Shown: positions 1 to 6,048, counted from the stretch's first letter. The stretch: DNA of 6,280 bases from a virus (IMGVR_UViG_2690315994_000034), one strand, 5' to 3'. The notes: generated by a model from the letters alone, not told the origin. Made by a program: numbers and translations.

Positions 1-852
1 TTAACCGGCTTCGTTTTGACAGGTTGCCGGTCTTTCTTTTTTCACTTTCGCCAGTTCTTCCGCAGAGTAATGCGACGCGACATCCAGCCGTCGAAGCCCC
101 ATTTTGATGTACTCGCTGTTGATCTCAATACCAATGAATTTTCGTCCGCTGGCGATGGCTACGGCACCGGTAGTAAAGCTACCAGCAAACGGGTCGAGAA
201 CGATATCGCCTGGGTTGGAAGAGGCGAGAATAATGCGTTTCAGTAAGGCTTCCGGTTTTTGCGTCGGGTGGTTTTCATATTCATCCATCAAATAACGCAC
301 GCGCGGAAAATCCCAGACGTTACCCGGTACTTTTTGATGATTGTAAGGCTGTGGAGGATTTTTGCGATAATCGATCAACGCGCGCTGCGATCCGGTTTTG
401 GCTTCTACCAGAATAGCATCACCGTTGAATGTGTAGTTCTTTGCGTCTTTCACCATCATCAGGATGGGTTCGTACATGGAGCCGTAGTGTTTTTTCGCCT
501 GCACTCCAGAACTGTCATATGACCAGACGATGCGACTTTTGATGGTAAAAAGCTTGCGGCACTGGAGATCGATAAAGGGCATGTTTTCCGTACTGTTCAT
601 GATGTACATGCTGCCCTGCTTTTTCAGAACGCGGTGGCACTCTGCAATCACTTCTAACAGCCAGTCGATAAACAGATCTTCTTTCCAGGCTTCGATCAGA
701 CCATCAAAATTTTTACCGATGTTATACGGTGGGTCGGCAAAGATCAGATCGACGCTTTCAGTAGGTAGCTTTTTAAGTTCGGCAAGGGCATCACCGTGAA
801 TAATGGTCTTAGCTTCATTACCAAACCGGGTCGGTTCACATCCTGTTCTCAT
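1..852 (-). CDS. yhdJ: DNA adenine methyltransferase YhdJ-like (complete, 283 aa)
   Basis: Reverse-strand ORF with stop TAA at 1-3. Likely true start is ATG at 850-852 (protein begins MRTGCEPTRFGNEAKTIIHGDALAELKK), preceded by AAGGGAG 5 nt upstream; the ORF-track start at 916-918 is a TTG giving a 22-aa extension. Contains the DPPY motif (IFADPPYNIG) and an AdoMet-binding-like LDPFAGSFTTG segment typical of N6-adenine/N4-cytosine methyltransferases. N-terminus matches my recollection of E. coli YhdJ. Confidence 0.9.
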   Translation of the reverse strand: MRTGCEPTRFGNEAKTIIHGDALAELKKLPTESVDLIFADPPYNIGKNFDGLIEAWKEDLFIDWLLEVIAECHRVLKKQGSMYIMNSTENMPFIDLQCRKLFTIKSRIVWSYDSSGVQAKKHYGSMYEPILMMVKDAKNYTFNGDAILVEAKTGSQRALIDYRKNPPQPYNHQKVPGNVWDFPRVRYLMDEYENHPTQKPEALLKRIILASSNPGDIVLDPFAGSFTTGAVAIASGRKFIGIEINSEYIKMGLRRLDVASHYSAEELAKVKKERPATCQNEAG

Positions 853-876
853 GGTCACTCCCTTTGTGACACCTAT

Positions 877-914
877 AAAAAAGGCGCTTCCCCATGCCGA
901 GTAGCGCCTTTTAA
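877..914 (-). terminator. Rho-independent terminator, probably the fis terminator
   Basis: Stem GGCGCT (883-888) / AGCGCC (903-908), extendable by A:T pairs to 10 bp, 14-nt loop. On the minus strand the stem is followed by TTTTTT (complement of 877-882); on the plus strand by TTTT. Lies between the fis 3' remnant and the yhdJ start. Confidence 0.55.
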
Positions 915-936
915 TCAAGCAATTAGCTAACCTGAA

Positions 937-957
937 TTAGTTCATGCCGTACTGTCA
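937..957 (-). other. fis: Remnant of fis 3' end; probable element/chromosome junction (att core copy)
   Basis: Minus strand reads TGA CAG TAC GGC ATG AAC TAA (stop-Q-Y-G-M-N-stop). Fis ends ..KKYGMN as I recall it. An in-frame stop sits immediately upstream, so only the last codons are present and upstream sequence is unrelated and AT-rich. Confidence 0.5.
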
Positions 958-1036
958 GATTAGCTGTTTTCATGCTTTTAGGTGATTTTAGTATTTATAT
1001 AATAATCAATGGCTTATTTAAATTTATGCCTGTATA

Positions 1037-1065
1037 TTGTTCCAGTGTTTTTCTTTGTTTATGCT
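1037..1065 (+). promoter_or_regulatory. Candidate sigma70 promoter for the integrase gene
   Basis: TTGTTC (1037-1042), 17-bp spacer, TATGCT (1060-1065), about 55 nt upstream of the integrase ATG. Weak match; region is AT-rich so chance matches are likely. Confidence 0.2.
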
Positions 1066-1081
1066 ATTATGCAAGCAATTC

Positions 1082-1103
1082 TGTATAAACATTTGTATAA
1101 ACA
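1082..1103 (+). repeat. Tandem direct repeat TGTATAAACA x2 in the integrase leader
   Basis: Identical 10-mers at 1082-1091 and 1094-1103, 18-27 nt upstream of the integrase ATG; a related TGTATATTGT at 1031-1040. Confidence 0.6.
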
Positions 1104-1120
1104 CTTTGGGCTGGTGGTCT

Positions 1121-2347
1121 ATGGCTGGCGAACTTAACAAACTGAGCGACAGGAAGTTAAAGGGATTACATGGCATCCCGGCCAGTAAGATTGAGTTCTA
1201 TGCTGATGGTGCCGGGCTGAGTGCCAAGGTAACGAAAGCTGGTGGTATTAGCTGGGTGTTTACTTACCGACTCGACGGGCAGAAGTTGCATCGTCTTACT
1301 CTGGGACGATACCCGGATATGAGCCTCAAAGAGGCCCGTTCCTCGCGTGATAAATGCCGCCAGTGGCTGGCCTCAGGTAAAGACCCAAAGCACCAGTTGG
1401 CGCTAACTACTCAGGAAACGCTTAAACCGGTCACGGTGCAGGAAGCTATCGAATACTGGATACGTGAATATGCAGAAGAGAATCGCGCGAATGTTGAGCG
1501 GCATAAAGCGGAGCTACGCAAACATATTTACCCTTACATTGGAAAAATGGCGCTCGCTGACTGCGAAACCCGATACTGGCTTGACTGCTTTGACAGGATG
1601 AAAAAGAAAACGCCAGTCGCCGCAGGTTATGTGTTCCAGATGTGCAAACAAGCCCTGAAATTCTGCCGGGTTCGTCGCTATGCTGTGAGTACCGCGCTTG
1701 AAGATTTAACAATTCCAGATGTCGGTAAAAAACAGGCAAAAAAAGATCGGGTATTAAACGATAAAGAGGCTGGCGATTTATGGACTGCCATTACCTCTAG
1801 CACTTGCTTCATGCCTTACTACACCAGGCTACTGACAATCTTAATGGTGTTTGGGTGCCGAACGCAGGAGGCCAGACTATCAGAGTGGAGTGAATGGGAT
1901 ATGGATGCCTGGGTCTGGACAGTTCCCAAAGAGCACAGCAAGGGCGGCGAGAAGATTGTAAGACCTGTGCCGGATGCCATGCGCAAATTCATTGAAATAC
2001 TGCATGATGAAACGAAACTATCCGGTCTTTTGCTTGGGTCGGTTAAAGGCAGTGAAGCGGTAAGCCAGTGGGGCCGTAGCGTTTATAAAAAGCTGGGGCA
2101 TTCTGAACCATGGACACTGCACGATCTAAGACGAACTTTAGCAACGCATATGAATAATATGGGTATAGCACCACACGTTGTCGAACAGTTGTTGGGGCAC
2201 TCAATGCCGGGAGTTATGGCGATTTATAACCGTAGTCTGTACTTGCCTGAGAAGCTGGACGCGCTGAATAAGTGGTATGAACGATTAGAACTTCTTGCGG
2301 GTAATCATCAAAATGTGGTTCTGTTACCTGTAATGAATAGAGATTAA
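1121..2347 (+). CDS. int: Tyrosine recombinase, P4-type phage integrase (408 aa)
   Basis: Likely start ATG 1121 (MAGELNKLSDRKLK..); the ORF-track start 1037 is TTG. N-terminal region (LSDRKLKGL..YADGAGLSAKVTKAGGISWVFTYRLDGQKLHRLTLGRYPDMSLKEAR) resembles the arm-binding domain of P4-like integrases. C-terminal catalytic signature present: R in FGCRTQEARLSEW, HDLRRT, LLGHS, tyrosine in AIYNRS. Stop TAA 2345-2347. Confidence 0.9.
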   Translation: MAGELNKLSDRKLKGLHGIPASKIEFYADGAGLSAKVTKAGGISWVFTYRLDGQKLHRLTLGRYPDMSLKEARSSRDKCRQWLASGKDPKHQLALTTQETLKPVTVQEAIEYWIREYAEENRANVERHKAELRKHIYPYIGKMALADCETRYWLDCFDRMKKKTPVAAGYVFQMCKQALKFCRVRRYAVSTALEDLTIPDVGKKQAKKDRVLNDKEAGDLWTAITSSTCFMPYYTRLLTILMVFGCRTQEARLSEWSEWDMDAWVWTVPKEHSKGGEKIVRPVPDAMRKFIEILHDETKLSGLLLGSVKGSEAVSQWGRSVYKKLGHSEPWTLHDLRRTLATHMNNMGIAPHVVEQLLGHSMPGVMAIYNRSLYLPEKLDALNKWYERLELLAGNHQNVVLLPVMNRD

Positions 2348-2380
2348 ACTGATATTGCGGGCCTAGGTCGGCCAACCGAA

Positions 2381-2402
2381 AAGCGGGAAACCCTACCCGC
2401 TT
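2381..2402 (+). terminator. Hairpin between integrase and next gene; weak terminator candidate
   Basis: AAGCGGG (2381-2387), 8-nt loop, CCCGCTT (2396-2402); flanked by a partial outer palindrome GCCAA..TTGGC. No T tract follows, so terminator function is doubtful. Confidence 0.25.
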
Positions 2403-2440
2403 GGCTCGCAAATTAATTTAGGGGCGTTGAGGGCAGCGCA

Positions 2441-3370
2441 ATGGCTAACGACATTAAAATACCTTTTCAATACTGCAATATTGAACGTGCGTCGAGATTG
2501 CTGGGTTGTGAGATTAGCGACCTGATTAATTTAGGTGTTACTAAAAAAATATCTTTATGTCTAAATTTGTTTGATGCTCGCGCTGTTTTATATATGAGAA
2601 CTGACAGCAAATCTGCATGCGACTGGTTCGATACCAGAAAGGCAAACTCCACCACATCCATGATGGGAAACAATATTACTGAATTTTCCAGGCTTCATCT
2701 CTACAGATGCGATTACAATGAGGAAACGGAAGAAACGATTCACGTGCCTTTATTTGGTCAAGATACAGAAAATGGGTGTTTCAGTTCTATTGGTAAGGCT
2801 TATGGGTTGTGGCGTCTTTGGAGCGGATTAGAAGAGCTACAAAATTTTGGAGAGTATGCCCTAAGTGGTTTTGAATTAACCCCGTGCCATCCAGAAACTG
2901 ATAATCCCGCCGTACAGCTTTTAATGGTTGGCGAAGATAGCGATTATGATGAAGAAGACGATCAAGTATTCAAAAATAAAATCTCTATAAACGATTTGTG
3001 GATTACTGCTCAGGATATAAGGCGGCTCCTTGACTGTGGTGGCGATTATTTCACGCTGACAGATGATATTGAATTTGTAGAACCTCATAAGATGAATGGC
3101 AATGAAATTGTTCATCATTCTGCTGAAAGACATGCAAGAAATCGAGAGCAAATTTTAATGGTAGCCATGCGCTTCAAAGAAGAGCAGCAAAATGCTTTTA
3201 ATGAGAGTTGCAGAAAAACAGATGGAACTATTAACTATTCTGCCTGGGCCCGTGAGTTGATCGCCAGACCTGACTGGTTCATCAATGGTGAATTGCCAAT
3301 AAAAACAGAAACGAAAATAGCAGCAATATTAAACAATGCGCATAAGAGGCCGAGCGAAAGAACACAGTAA
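2441..3370 (+). CDS. Hypothetical protein, 309 aa, function unknown
   Basis: ATG at 2441 with GAGGG 7 nt upstream; stop TAA 3368-3370. Noticeably AT-richer than flanking genes (first 60 nt are about 37% GC). Contains acidic patch GEDSDYDEEDDQ and two helix-turn-helix-like stretches (IERASRLLGCEISDLINLG and ISINDLWITAQDIRRLLDCGG). No catalytic motif recognised. Confidence 0.65.
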   Translation: MANDIKIPFQYCNIERASRLLGCEISDLINLGVTKKISLCLNLFDARAVLYMRTDSKSACDWFDTRKANSTTSMMGNNITEFSRLHLYRCDYNEETEETIHVPLFGQDTENGCFSSIGKAYGLWRLWSGLEELQNFGEYALSGFELTPCHPETDNPAVQLLMVGEDSDYDEEDDQVFKNKISINDLWITAQDIRRLLDCGGDYFTLTDDIEFVEPHKMNGNEIVHHSAERHARNREQILMVAMRFKEEQQNAFNESCRKTDGTINYSAWARELIARPDWFINGELPIKTETKIAAILNNAHKRPSERTQ

Positions 3371-3391
3371 GCCTTACTCATATACTCCTAT

Positions 3392-3428
3392 AGCATACTG
3401 ATATATTTATAAGCATTATCAGTATGCT
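3392..3428. repeat. 12-bp perfect inverted repeat AGCATACTGATA / TATCAGTATGCT with 13-bp spacer
   Basis: Arms at 3392-3403 and 3417-3428, between the 309-aa gene stop and the alpA start; followed by ATGCTT x2. Could be an operator, recombination-related site or terminator. Confidence 0.5.
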
Positions 3429-3508
3429 TCTATGCTTACAACTGTATTTCTATCCAGTGTTAACGGTTGCAAACTAGCCTCCACAAACTTAGAAACAGTG
3501 GAGGCAAC

Positions 3509-3793
3509 ATGCAAAACCCCATTTTTACCCCGCCTAATCCTGAACAGCGCCGCACCCTTTTAGAAGAGTACGGCTTTAAGTTCGATCGTCGAATCCGTGA
3601 AGAAGAATGTAGCGAGATCACCAGCCTTTCCCGTTCCAGCCGTTGGAAAATGGAGCAGCAAGGACGATTTCCGCCACGCTGCCACTTCGGCCGCAATAGC
3701 TGTGCCTGGCTTCTTTCTGATGTGCTCTGGTGGGTTCGTAATCCGCCTGTAGTAGAGAACGTCAATAACCCATACAGCCGCAAATCTGCTTAA
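3509..3793 (+). CDS. alpA: AlpA-family phage transcriptional regulator / excisionase-like HTH protein (94 aa)
   Basis: Likely start ATG 3509 with GTGGAGG 4 nt upstream; ORF-track start 3467 is TTG. Segment ITSLSRSSRWKMEQQGRFPPRCHFGRNSCAWLLSDVLWWVRN fits the AlpA pattern (LSRSTIYR..G.FP.P...G.R...W...EV..W). Confidence 0.8.
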   Translation: MQNPIFTPPNPEQRRTLLEEYGFKFDRRIREEECSEITSLSRSSRWKMEQQGRFPPRCHFGRNSCAWLLSDVLWWVRNPPVVENVNNPYSRKSA

Positions 3794-3813
3794 TTAACTA
3801 CAGGTAATCAGAG

Positions 3814-4524
3814 ATGAAAAAGATTAATGCCCTCAACGGGCAGGGATTCGCTCACCCTGAAGCCAGCCAGAGCGATATTTTAATTAATCACAAATCGGAG
3901 CCGCGTATCGATTCCCGCGTTATTTCAGAGCGAGCCGGAATACAACATGAAAGCCTAAGCGCGACGATTAAATCGCACCAGAGCAGATTGCGCGAGCTGG
4001 GATCACTGCCTCGTCAGTCACTCAAGGAATTAACCGATTTGAAATCGGGAAAATCCGGCCGAAAGCGTGGGCGTCCTGAGATTAGTTATCTGCTGAATGA
4101 GCCGCAGCTCGACTATCTGCTGCGTATCACCCGAGGGCGTGATCCTGAGCGTATTAACCAGTTCAAACTGGATGTTACGAAGGCATTCACTAAGCGCCGC
4201 GCCGCAGAACCTATCCGCCGTGAGTACCTGCCTGGCTATCACGAAAGCCGCGACAGATTAAAAGCTCTGGGCGCACAACGGCACCATTACATCAATCTGG
4301 CCCGCGCTGAAAACCGCGTGGCTGGTTTGTCTGATGGTGAACGCGGTACCGCAGACGAACAGCAATTGGGGCTGTTGGTAGTGATGCAGAAAATCGAACA
4401 GGCGGCCTTTAATGAGGCGGTGCGTAATGACATGAGTCCAGGCGATGCGGTGCGTGAGGTTGCCCGCCGTATGGATGCGTTCGCCAGCCTGATCACTTCA
4501 TCGTCAGTGTTGGAGATTCGCTGA
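3814..4524 (+). CDS. Rha-family phage regulatory protein-like (236 aa)
   Basis: ATG 3814, stop TGA 4522-4524. Segments DSRVISERAGIQHESLSATIKS and ISYLLNEPQLDYLLRITRGRDPERINQFKLDVTKAF resemble the Rha N-terminal domain as I remember it (..TSSR.IAE.FGKRH..VLR.I.. and ..GY.LT..GF..L.M.FTG..A..FK..YI.AF..). Confidence 0.65.
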   Translation: MKKINALNGQGFAHPEASQSDILINHKSEPRIDSRVISERAGIQHESLSATIKSHQSRLRELGSLPRQSLKELTDLKSGKSGRKRGRPEISYLLNEPQLDYLLRITRGRDPERINQFKLDVTKAFTKRRAAEPIRREYLPGYHESRDRLKALGAQRHHYINLARAENRVAGLSDGERGTADEQQLGLLVVMQKIEQAAFNEAVRNDMSPGDAVREVARRMDAFASLITSSSVLEIR

Positions 4525-4546
4525 TGCGTCTTATGCCTAAAATTTT

Positions 4547-4568
4547 GCGCTCCCCCGTTTGGGGGCGC
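4547..4568 (+). terminator. GC-rich hairpin just downstream of the Rha-like gene; weak terminator candidate
   Basis: GCGCTCCCCC / GTTT loop / GGGGGCGC, 23 nt after the stop. No clear T tract on the plus strand (TCAAATCC follows). Confidence 0.25.
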
Positions 4569-4663
4569 TCAAATCCTTGTGAGTTAGCCGCGTGCTATTT
4601 GCATAACTCAATCAGGGTTGCGCAGAATTTGAGCCGACGAAATTCGCACGTACAAATTAACCG

Positions 4664-4680
4664 CGTACGTTTAACGTACG
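4664..4680. promoter_or_regulatory. 17-bp palindrome CGTACGTTTAACGTACG; candidate operator
   Basis: Perfect 8-bp arms around a central T; contains two CGTACG hexamers; a further ACGTAC at 4648-4653. Same core as the palindromes at 5247-5286. Confidence 0.4.
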
Positions 4681-4832
4681 GACATCTCAACCCATTGAAT
4701 CATTTTGATTATCGCGAAACGCGAGAATTGGCGAGCAACGAACACGAACAGTATTCGGGTTCTCCTGAACATCAACACTGCTTAGGTTCAGAGGTTCCGA
4801 CGAAAAACGTAGAGAGCTGCGAAGATAACCAA

Positions 4833-4847
4833 CCCTCTTTAAGAGGG
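4833..4847 (-). terminator. Candidate terminator of the leftward RHH/small-peptide operon
   Basis: Palindrome CCCTCTTTAAGAGGG. On the minus strand the hairpin is followed by TTGGTTATCTT, and it lies 33-47 nt downstream of the small-peptide stop. Confidence 0.3.
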
Positions 4848-4879
4848 CCAGTTAAAGGCATTACAGGGAGTAACCCTGA

Positions 4880-5032
4880 TCAGCCATTTTTACAGCCTTT
4901 CAGTACATCGCCAGGGTTAACGGAACAGTCAGGCTTCCAAAGCGAATCGAAAAAACCGAATTGGTACAAAATCCATAAAATAATTAGTGCAATGAGAATG
5001 CGACCTGGGAGGGTATGTAACAGCCAGTTCAT
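4880..5032 (-). CDS. Small single-pass membrane peptide, 50 aa (not in the ORF track)
   Basis: Hand-translated minus strand: ATG at 5030-5032 preceded by GAAGGAG (5041-5047) with 8-nt spacing; stop TGA at 4880-4882. Product MNWLLHTLPGRILIALIILWILYQFGFFDSLWKPDCSVNPGDVLKGCKNG has an 18-residue hydrophobic stretch and a short polar tail with two Cys. Starts 21 nt after the RHH gene stop. Confidence 0.5.
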   Translation of the reverse strand: MNWLLHTLPGRILIALIILWILYQFGFFDSLWKPDCSVNPGDVLKGCKNG

Positions 5033-5053
5033 TATTTTATCTCCTTCTGAAAT

Positions 5054-5245
5054 TCAACCTTTTGGCTCTATGCCGCGCCGCTTTAGTTCTGCCCTAGCTA
5101 ATTCTTTAAACCAGTTACCAAGGGTTAGACCGTCAGAAGTTGCCGCCTCATTTACTTGTTGGCGTAGCTCTTTACTGATTCTGATTTGGAAGGTTGGAGA
5201 CCATCCCTCACCGCGTGGCGATTTATCGCGCTTTAATGTTGACAT
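5054..5245 (-). CDS. Ribbon-helix-helix (Arc/MetJ/CopG-like) DNA-binding protein, 63 aa
   Basis: ATG at 5243-5245, only possible start (in-frame TAG upstream); AGGAG 12 nt upstream. PTFQIRISKELRQQVNEAATSDGLTLGNWFKELARAELKRRG fits strand / helix / G-x-T turn / helix of RHH repressors, compared by eye with P22 Mnt and Arc. Confidence 0.5.
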   Translation of the reverse strand: MSTLKRDKSPRGEGWSPTFQIRISKELRQQVNEAATSDGLTLGNWFKELARAELKRRGIEPKG

Positions 5246-5267
5246 GTACGTACGTAACTCCTATTAT
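5239..5267 (+). promoter_or_regulatory. Near-consensus sigma70 promoter, rightward
   Basis: TTGACA (5239-5244), 17-bp spacer, TATTAT (5262-5267); predicted start near 5274. The -35 box overlaps the RHH start codon on the opposite strand. Confidence 0.5.
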
Positions 5268-5286
5268 CATTGCTGTTACGTACGTA
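5247..5286. promoter_or_regulatory. Twin palindromic operator candidates TACGTACGTA x2
   Basis: Identical 10-bp perfect palindromes at 5247-5256 (inside the promoter spacer) and 5277-5286 (at the predicted transcription start), spaced exactly 30 bp. Confidence 0.5.
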
Positions 5287-5303
5287 CAATATCAGTAGGT
5301 ACA

Positions 5304-5346
5304 GTAAAAAGCAAAGCCCCGCAAGTGTCGTTACCACTCGCAGGGC
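5304..5346 (-). terminator. Strong hairpin, terminator-like on the minus strand
   Basis: GCCCCGCAAGTG (5316-5327), loop TCGTTAC, CACTCGCAGGGC (5335-5346): 12-bp stem with two mismatches. On the minus strand it is followed by TTTGCTTTTTAC; on the plus strand by TTCTAACC (poor). Lies in the leader between the promoter and gene 5385-5588. Confidence 0.4.
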
Positions 5347-5384
5347 TTCTAACCACCAACGATAGAAAGCGTATCGAGGTAGCT

Positions 5385-5588
5385 ATGAGAAATCATACCA
5401 CACACCCGCAAGGGCGGGACTCGCACAACCTGAATAAATACATCTGGCGTTTTATCGCCCTGAGCACGGCACAACCGCGCGTGATTACCATTGAGGCCAC
5501 CAGCGAACAGGAAGCACGCCAGCAATCTCCGGCTGGCTGCGTGATGGTATTCGCTGCCCGTATTCGTCAGGGGTCACATCATGCGTAA
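5385..5588 (+). CDS. Small protein, 67 aa, ends in ARIRQG motif; possibly Ash-like/Icd-like
   Basis: ATG 5385 with GAGG 5 nt upstream; stop TAA 5586-5588 overlaps the next ATG (ATGCGTAA). Shares YxWRF..EATSEQEARQQ..FAARIRQG with the C-terminus of the next ORF. The family name is a vague recollection, not a verified match. Confidence 0.55.
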   Translation: MRNHTTHPQGRDSHNLNKYIWRFIALSTAQPRVITIEATSEQEARQQSPAGCVMVFAARIRQGSHHA

Positions 5589-6048
5589 AAACCGCTTGCA
5601 AAAAATTATCACGGGGCTGTATGCTTCCCCCGTCGCCCACATGGCGACCGGGTTTGACAGCCTGAATACATCTGGCGGACAGCCGCCCACATCCGATAAG
5701 CGGTTTTTTTGTGTCCGTAAACCTACCCATACCCGCATTATGGCGGGGCGTAACGGGGGAGCCTTTGTGCTCGCTGGTTTCCAGATGACCAGTCTGTCAA
5801 CCCTGTTACGTCTCGCCACCATGTTTGACAGCGTAGTAGCGAGACTCCTTAAAATTCATCTGGGAGCCTTTCACATGGCTGTATCCGCACGCCCTTATTT
5901 TGTCTGGCGCTTTATGCAGTGCCAGGAAAAACAAACCTCACTCTTTACCGTCACGGCAGCAACAGAACGCGAAGCCCGCGCCCAGCTGCCGCACGCACAT
6001 CTGATTTTTGTCGCCCGTATTCGTCAGGGGGAAACCTATGCACAATAA
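5581..6048 (+). CDS. Protein of 155 aa whose C-terminal 50 aa are paralogous to the preceding gene
   Basis: ATG 5581 overlaps the upstream stop and sits 7 nt after GGGG, the same arrangement as the next junction at 6038. C-terminus YFVWRF..TAATEREARAQ..FVARIRQG. N-terminal 98 aa are compositionally odd (R/G/S/T-rich), so the real gene may start at ATG 5875 (57 aa). Confidence 0.45.
   Translation: MRKNRLQKIITGLYASPVAHMATGFDSLNTSGGQPPTSDKRFFCVRKPTHTRIMAGRNGGAFVLAGFQMTSLSTLLRLATMFDSVVARLLKIHLGAFHMAVSARPYFVWRFMQCQEKQTSLFTVTAATEREARAQLPHAHLIFVARIRQGETYAQ

Follow-up and report, generated by a model that had tools for sequence, protein, structure and literature searches.

An exchangeable cassette between int and alpA of a probable capsid-forming phage satellite, with ORF309 as a candidate DNA-binding regulator of alpA

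Introduction

The PICMIs of Vibrio (phage-inducible chromosomal minimalist islands) carry an integrase-overlapping or integrase-contiguous gene (iolg or icg), for which 13 unrelated families have been described (PMC10803314). Likened by position, this class is the closest described counterpart of ORF309, a gene found in a 6,280-nt stretch of the viral contig IMGVR_UViG_2690315994_000034. We analysed the whole of that stretch, hereafter the window, by computation alone. ORF309 is protein-coding, lies between the integrase gene int and alpA on the same strand as both, and stands in a phage satellite: this is the position that distinguishes iolg and icg.

In Gram-negative phage-inducible chromosomal islands (PICIs), AlpA is the master activator and excisionase (PMC6092414, PMC10803314). 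The helper phage switches alpA on through an unknown route (PMC6092414, PMC11773190, PMC10803314), and the global repressor and inducer of these islands remain unidentified (PMC6092414). How they stay silent and how the helper turns on alpA is an acknowledged open question; the PICMI study itself raises the question of how the early regulon is activated by the helper, and of the interplay between AlpA, Int and "probably IOLG" (PMC10803314).

A first-pass annotation of the window had taken ORF309 for accessory or defence cargo. Here we describe an exchangeable cassette consisting of ORF309, the RNA motif RF02996 and the DNA upstream of a hairpin at alpA, with repeats two helical turns apart. 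The fixed position of the gene, its predicted winged helix, the leader RNA and the repeats facing alpA together suggest that ORF309 probably belongs to the integration and regulation module of the island, and is not a passenger gene.

Results

The place between int and alpA is fixed and its content is exchangeable

Three genes of the window define the slot:
1121..2347, + strand: int, a P4-type tyrosine integrase (Pfam Arm-DNA-bind_3 and Phage_integrase).
2441..3370, + strand: ORF309, an intact 309-codon open reading frame (ORF) with an ATG start, of the uncharacterised family PHROG 7144.
3509..3793, + strand: alpA (Pfam Phage_AlpA, PHROG 2790), the proposed regulatory target.

In all 17 integrase-bearing loci examined, int comes first, then the slot gene and alpA, and behind these a Bro/AntA/Rha gene and a primase. 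Represented among the loci are E. coli, Enterobacter, a Klebsiella "phage" record, Photorhabdus, Arsenophonus, four Xenorhabdus species and L009, L017, L018 and L019, the last four being metagenomic or read-assembly contigs. The upstream gene of L018 and L019 leaves the contig end and was called int by position only. Relatives at 21-23% identity, which resemble ORF309 mainly in the N-terminal domain, keep the order too. One relative, P0020 (36% identity, in L019), overlaps int by 4 nt.

The content of the slot varies. E. coli islands at the fis site hold four different genes there, and in those with a gene other than ORF309, Int and AlpA are 97% and 96% identical to those of the window. The DUF6387 gene (262 aa) overlaps int in an ATGA and the 216-aa gene does so by 1 nt, islands L003 and L004 covering these two; the 272-aa protein has only its N-terminal part in common with ORF309. 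Homology of the window to the sister islands ends at 2280-2307, or at 2537 for the 272-aa gene; it picks up again at 3475-3486, with 24-34 nt left to the alpA start codon. From these breakpoints it follows that the exchangeable unit is the slot gene with all DNA 5' of the hairpin at the alpA ribosome-binding site. Around a constant Int and AlpA, the slot gene is exchanged along with the 100-130 nt 5' of that hairpin, and int lies outside the cassette except for its last ~40-240 nt.

The same cassette is also found with another integrase. In an Enterobacter hormaechei island at gcd (L024), ORF309 is 99% identical within a 96.5% identical block that corresponds to window 2105-3880, and the integrase is only 63% identical. 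This bears on the reading that ORF309 is an excision or integration co-factor, acting with Int and AlpA in a recombination complex and not in transcription, as the authors of the PICMI study proposed for IOLG (PMC10803314). The constant place beside int, the 4-nt overlap in L019, the overlaps of the DUF6387 and 216-aa genes and the predicted excisionase-type winged helix described below all agree with such a role. Moreover, deletion of iolg abolishes excision of PICMI115 (PMC10803314). We nevertheless regard the co-factor reading as unlikely, as the nearly identical ORF309 serves islands that differ in integrase and in attachment (att) site, fis or gcd, and one integrase is paired with four different slot genes. 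In addition, the repeats of the cassette lie ~2.3 kb from the island att end, beside alpA and not in the att arms.

ORF309 is AT-richer than both neighbours, as first annotated: its GC content is 39.6% (35.8% at third codon positions), compared to 48.3% in int and 51.2% in alpA. The first-pass annotation had read this as a sign of separate acquisition. Slot occupants lie 3-14 points under int and alpA in 11 of 11 elements, so that low GC is a property of the slot and poor evidence for a recent, separate acquisition of ORF309 itself.

A separate observation concerns Xenorhabdus hominickii. At L015 4950-5387 only the C-terminal 145 codons of an ORF309 relative are left, with no start codon seen, and tRNA genes take the place of the upstream integrase; four phased repeats and alpA persist. 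The locus looks like a decayed island.

ORF309 is a constrained gene of an uncharacterised family

A GAGGG Shine-Dalgarno sequence stands just 5' of the ORF309 start. Against two E. coli alleles (92% and 88% nucleotide identity), the ratio of nonsynonymous to synonymous substitution rates (dN/dS) is 0.056-0.085. Purifying selection acts on each of the four parts of the protein, the beta-rich middle domain having the highest dN among them. ORF309 is a genuine, constrained gene under strong purifying selection, and in this the first-pass annotation was right, as it was in finding no motif to assign.

The sole family match was a full-length one to PHROG 7144 (E 7e-40), in which residues 3-298 align to positions 4-308 of the 313 in the profile; this family has no annotated function. 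Pfam, NCBIfam, PADLOC and PDB sequences gave no match, also when three separate parts of the protein were searched at E up to 10, and neither single-sequence nor profile searches matched a solved structure. PADLOC-DB 2.0 returned 0 families at E up to 1. Domain scans found no nuclease, NTPase, membrane or toxin domain, nor any other enzymatic or effector domain. None of 129 scanned relatives has a credible Pfam domain; one distant family member weakly matches the NUMOD1 DNA-binding module. The HTH_17 and Phage_AlpA profiles of Pfam did not match ORF309 even at E 10, and domain-by-domain profile comparison with AlpA was not significant (hhalign E 0.2).

The family itself is large. An exhaustive profile search of 1.84 billion representatives found 323 clusters at E <= 0.001; among the matches listed, nearly all of 150 clusters have a length of 270-340 aa. 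The named members sampled are all "hypothetical protein" entries of Enterobacterales (Yersinia, Enterobacter, Morganella, Providencia, Photorhabdus, Arsenophonus). A genome scan with a narrow alignment led to six Xenorhabdus loci only, and a second, word-indexed protein search with a broad alignment added just two further usable relatives.

A predicted winged helix, a variable middle and a conserved C-terminus

The AlphaFold model of ORF309 has a predicted local distance difference test score (pLDDT) of 80. It divides the protein as follows:
2441..2596, + strand: residues 1-52, predicted N-terminal winged helix-turn-helix of MerR/excisionase type; residues 11-52 are modelled as an N-terminal strand-helix-turn-helix-hairpin.
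2597..2935, + strand: residues 53-165 (53-162 in the model), beta-rich middle domain, the variable part of the family.
2936..2968, + strand: residues 166-176, acidic disordered linker EDSDYDEEDD, with pLDDT below 50 and a length that varies in the alignment.
Residues 180-199: short strand-helix unit in the model.
Residues 209-226: second disordered stretch in the model.
3119..3343, + strand: residues 227-301, four-helix C-terminal domain in the model, with the conserved pattern HHSAERHAxNREQIL ... CRKxDGxINYSAWAREL ... IKTExKIA.

The acidic patch reported at first is thus present, at about residues 166-175, and is predicted to be disordered.

In a fold search, the only recurrent structural matches were DNA-binding winged helices of the MerR/Xis/BldC/AlpA type. 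The N-terminus of ORF309 is therefore predicted to be a winged helix of the DNA-binding kind. Structural search with the beta-rich middle domain gave no match; we consider it a candidate sensor domain. The C-terminal domain, where most of the invariant alignment columns fall, also occurs alone or joined to other N-terminal parts, and would be a candidate sequence-specific DNA-binding domain. Among 164 relatives, hidden Markov models of single domains detected the N-terminal domain in 153, the C-terminal one in 103 and the beta domain in 60. As judged from these sequences, the two terminal domains are the shared ends of the family and the beta domain its variable part.

These results leave little room for the first-pass view that ORF309 is accessory cargo, which would block rival phages, rival satellites or the helper, for instance by repressing phage promoters like CapR of the phage-inducible chromosomal island-like elements (PLEs). 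An AT-rich variable slot with several unrelated occupants agrees with cargo, the variable middle domain could fit an arms race, and satellites do hold defence genes in hotspots (PMC10803314, PMC10085698). The defence hotspot of PICMIs is elsewhere, between prim and fis (PMC10803314). Neither ORF309 nor the four alternative slot genes matched PADLOC, with the exception of one chance-level helix-turn-helix match among the latter, and the domain scans of ORF309 revealed no effector. The position is strictly kept, dN/dS is low throughout the gene, and the gene comes with a structured RNA and, in front of alpA, a phased repeat array, both described below. We find the cargo reading distinctly improbable.

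A structured RNA precedes the slot gene

The spacer between int and ORF309 is filled by one element:
2356..2424, + strand: Rfam RF02996 'int-alpA RNA', 61.2 bits against a gathering score of 35.8.

A distance of 17-21 nt separates its 3' end from the start codon of the slot gene, both in the window and in seven other loci (L002 9205-9271, L005 5359-5426, L006 7914-7983, L007 7917-7982, L016 6914-6980, L018 544-611 and L021 8905-8972), including two distant relatives that share mainly the N-terminal domain with ORF309. Compensatory changes occur in 12 of its 23 predicted pairs. Islands whose slot gene overlaps int lack the motif. In Rfam it is entered as a small RNA (sRNA); the constant distance to the start codon suggests a leader or attenuator that couples the gene of the ORF309 family to int transcription. 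RF02996 is probably such a 5' element and not a free-standing sRNA.

Repeats phased by 21 bp co-vary with the slot gene

Downstream of ORF309, the DNA up to alpA contains:
3368..3439, + strand: four direct repeats phased by ~21 bp, TAAGCCTTAC (3368), TATAGCATAC (3389), TAAGCATTAT (3410) and TATGCTTAC (3431), a candidate operator array.
3392..3428, + strand: perfect 12-bp inverted repeat AGCATACTGATA / TATCAGTATGCT, after ORF309.
3477..3505, + strand: 8-bp hairpin GCCTCCAC/GTGGAGGC, which pairs the alpA Shine-Dalgarno GGAGG.

Phased repeats of three or four units stand between the slot-gene stop codon and alpA in 11 of 11 lineages, and their sequences are lineage-specific. In a pooled autocorrelation of these lineages, 50 8-mer self-matches fell at shift 21 where 0.62 were expected (z = 41); the peak is flanked by shoulders at 20 and 22 and recurs as a harmonic at 42, and all 11 lineages contribute. 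No peak at shift 21 was seen in controls taken inside slot genes, nor in the spacers that belong to the DUF6387 and 216-aa cassettes.

The repeat units are of several types. GTAAGCnnTAC-type units are found in E. coli, Photorhabdus, Xenorhabdus and metagenomic relatives, while Arsenophonus, X. hominickii and Klebsiella have CTAGnnnCTAGA or TCTAAnnnTTAGA units; relatives with the N-terminal domain only (L016, L018, L005) have unrelated 21-nt units. By eye, many units seem to hold short palindromes (GTAAG-C-CTTAC, TCTAA-N3-TTAGA, CTGGA-AAA-TCCAG). Within the ORF309 clade, the repeat type tracks the C-terminal subtype (NREQ[IV]L / KTExKI as opposed to NREKIF / KTxEAI), a hint that the C-terminal domain could read the repeats.

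The repeats differ between islands with near-identical Int and AlpA, and they are unchanged in L024 and L002 although the downstream Bro/Rha gene differs there or is a pseudogene. Int arm sites, AlpA sites and Bro/Rha-protein sites were each considered as the identity of the repeats and rejected: those proteins are constant or vary independently, whereas the repeats change with the slot gene. With these poor explanations set aside, the slot protein is the obvious candidate ligand.

Direct repeats spaced by ~21-22 bp beside a protein of ~300 aa with a predicted winged helix also resemble the iteron origins of plasmids, a comparison that comes from the RepA, pi and RepE systems. The repeats would then serve as iterons, with ORF309 as the Rep- or ParB-like protein that replicates or maintains the excised island. 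This appears very improbable: the several units that seem to hold short palindromes are more operator-like, the island has its own primase-helicase, and the origin of Gram-negative PICIs is reported downstream of pri (PMC10111431). As a Rep/iteron initiator ORF309 was rejected also by structure, the tandem winged-helix fold of RepE and pi not being found in its model.

Two further repeat observations are recorded here. A perfect copy of TAAGCCTTAC occurs inside ORF309 on the opposite strand (window 2793-2802, − strand); the looser pattern TAWGCNTTAY was found 3 times in the whole window against 0.33 expected, and the internal copy could be due to chance. In L004, where the 216-aa gene fills the slot, 600 nt (5995-6594) separate it from alpA; a 10-bp unit, CATTCAACAG, is repeated there in tandem about six times, and another 10-bp array, a degenerate one, is present as well.

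Either the 12-bp inverted repeat forms a hairpin or weak terminator behind ORF309, or it makes up two inverted operator half-sites; Photorhabdus and Xenorhabdus have clear intrinsic terminators at the equivalent place. The hairpin over the alpA Shine-Dalgarno sequence lies just within the right-hand homology breakpoint and is the first sequence common to islands with other slot genes. It recurs in L003, L005 and L019, the changes in L002 and L004 seem by eye compatible with wobble pairing, and more distant islands have analogous pairings against the Shine-Dalgarno sequence. It may keep read-through transcripts of int and ORF309 untranslated for alpA.

The element is a probable capsid-forming island between yhdJ and fis

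One more gene follows alpA in the window:
3814-4524: Rha-like gene, downstream of alpA.

The window itself contains only int, the slot gene, alpA, the Rha-like gene, a C4 RNA and icd, and starts in yhdJ, with sequence that matches E. coli yhdJ in 5,424 of 5,426 complete genomes. L001, the closest relative in E. coli, has 94% nucleotide identity over window 1-4846. It then carries primase, major capsid, prohead protease, portal, head closure, connector, HNH, small and large terminase subunits (TerS and TerL), and ends at fis; one gene at its fis-proximal end is annotated as "tail assembly protein", by annotation only. The L024 island has the full set as well. Gene order in the closest relatives is int, slot gene, alpA, Bro, icd, primase, capsid, protease, portal, connector, HNH, TerS, TerL, at a yhdJ-fis site or at gcd. 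Such a gene set defines a capsid-forming PICI (cf-PICI; 10.1101/2022.09.08.507074), and fis is the integration site of many Gram-negative PICIs (PMC10111431). In cf-PICIs, int, alpA and primase are co-oriented and tail genes are lacking. Reading the full gene set from L001 and L024, we take the element for a probable cf-PICI between yhdJ and fis.

Upstream of int, a 24-nt sequence (window 965-988) is 100% identical to L024 8514-8537, despite the 63% identical integrases and the fis and gcd att sites. At window ~1083-1107 (+ strand) a tandem motif with 12-bp spacing, TGTATAAACA, occurs twice. When the int-upstream regions of the window and eight other loci are pooled, the autocorrelation has its maximum at shift 12 (61 windows), which sets these motifs apart from the 21-bp repeats; they are possibly arm-type sites of Int or sites of AlpA.

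At the other end of the window, a C4 antisense RNA (72.6 bits), an a1/b1 target (46.8 bits) and a sub-threshold isrK-like match occupy positions 5619-5668, 5632-5710 and 5736-5823 (+ strand), just 5' of an Icd-like ORF (~5875-6048); a second Icd-like ORF ends at 5588. This region is an RNA immunity module like P1 immI and P4 CI. The long ORF at 4524-5588 is probably mostly non-coding. On the − strand, window 5054-5245 holds a 63-aa gene, annotated in relatives as HicB-family antitoxin or YlcI/YnfO protein, and such a reverse-strand gene is kept between the Bro-zone gene and icd in several islands.

In Arsenophonus nasoniae (CP123504.1, loci L007 and L008), the PICI integrase starts ~125 nt past the tape-measure gene of a prophage, both genes pointing the same way, and the genome has two copies of this arrangement. 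The layout looks like the helper-embedded PICI arrangement of PMC10111431.

Discussion

We tentatively propose that ORF309 is a DNA-binding regulator of alpA that acts through the repeats and is specific to its cassette. ORF309 would be made together with Int by read-through of the leader RNA, and would bind cooperatively to the phased repeats, all from one side of the helix and a short way upstream of the alpA promoter. In this way it would gate alpA, with either sign of control. In the first option alpA would be held off by operator or roadblock repression, as with Stl of Staphylococcus aureus pathogenicity islands (SaPIs) or a phage immunity repressor; in the second it would be activated once the variable middle domain senses a helper-phage product. 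The repressor option would fit a constitutive transcription of int and the slot gene towards alpA, the hairpin or terminator after ORF309 and the hairpin that sequesters the Shine-Dalgarno sequence. The need for iolg in helper-induced excision of PICMIs favours a positive or co-factor role (PMC10803314), and would fit a helper-sensing activator.

Several points weigh against this proposal. Only through their co-variation does ORF309, and not a helper-phage or other factor, appear as the ligand of the repeats. The N-terminal domain does not track the repeat type, which makes it uncertain which domain reads the repeats, and the link of repeat type to C-terminal subtype could be explained by shared descent. 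A sigma-70 promoter scan found a promoter neither for alpA nor for ORF309, so that the position of the repeats relative to the alpA promoter could not be set. Some PICIs do without a slot gene: EcCIMP1 has a 427-nt unannotated gap in its place, and in EcCICFT073 alpA seems to come directly after int, as suggested by the name ORF3 of the gene following alpA (PMC6092414). Furthermore, a helper phage activates a plasmid-borne EcCICFT073 PalpA reporter in island-free cells (PMC6092414). The islands without the gene and the island-free activation of PalpA indicate that the slot gene adds a layer; it is neither a universal switch nor generally required for induction.

A broader version of the proposal is possible, if rather doubtful. 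The genes between int and alpA would be the missing island-encoded specificity switch, each cassette combining a DNA-binding sensor with its own operator array before alpA. Exchange of the cassette would reset the helper phage or signal to which the island responds, like swaps of lambdoid immunity regions and the diversity of SaPI Stl, and RF02996 would set the level of the protein relative to the integrase.

No functional study of the slot gene, of DUF6387 or of the int-alpA RNA was found in the literature. The present analysis turns an anonymous "hypothetical protein" into a candidate regulator, of a 323-cluster family that lies between int and alpA in all contexts examined. It also brings out the putative cognate 21-bp phased repeats, which co-vary with the slot gene and not with Int or AlpA, and ties the orphan Rfam motif RF02996 to the ORF309 family as a probable leader. 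If ORF309 is merely an excision co-factor or cargo, this amounts to routine annotation of a satellite gene. If the proposal is true, helper specificity would find its explanation in the cassette, which could also be used to engineer delivery vehicles based on PICIs.

How does the cassette compare with known systems? In PICMIs the iolg/icg slot is likewise taken by genes of unknown function from many unrelated families. Some overlap int by 1-4 nt, as do P0020 and the DUF6387 and 216-aa genes, and PICMIs also integrate beside fis. ORF309 itself is of the contiguous type, its 93-nt gap being filled by the structured RNA. Hosts differ as well, ORF309 being found in PICIs and cf-PICIs of Enterobacterales and iolg/icg in the 6-kb PICMIs of Vibrio. 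Unlike the ORF309 cassette, IOLG comes with no described repeats or DNA-binding domain.

Some winged helices of the MerR superfamily, namely phage Xis, BldC and the AlpA/Vis/TorI excisionases, line up head to tail on direct repeats, and recall ORF309 in its setting beside direct-repeat arrays. They are single domains of 50-100 aa, whereas ORF309 adds ~250 residues without a known fold, and their profiles have no significant sequence match with it.

Stl of SaPIs and Rpr of Gram-positive PICIs (PMC6092414) are, like ORF309, satellite-encoded regulators or candidates thereof beside int, with an N-terminal DNA-binding domain and a divergent remainder, and they couple the island cycle to the helper phage, as is proposed here for ORF309. 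Stl has a lambda-type helix-turn-helix, is transcribed divergently from the genes it controls and loses its hold on them when bound by a helper-phage protein; ORF309, with its predicted MerR/Xis-type winged helix, is co-oriented with int and alpA. The two have no match in sequence or fold.

The lambdoid immunity region consists of a repressor gene and about three operators ~20-24 bp apart, and is exchanged as a cassette. Here too, a candidate regulator gene and phased, partly palindromic sites move jointly between otherwise near-identical elements. The protein fold is another one, no SOS-cleavable domain is visible in ORF309, and the sites, which in lambdoid phages stand between divergent promoters, here come downstream of the gene and upstream of a target in the same orientation. 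Altogether, it appears by analogy that the cassette resembles SaPI Stl and lambdoid immunity in its logic, not in sequence or gene orientation.
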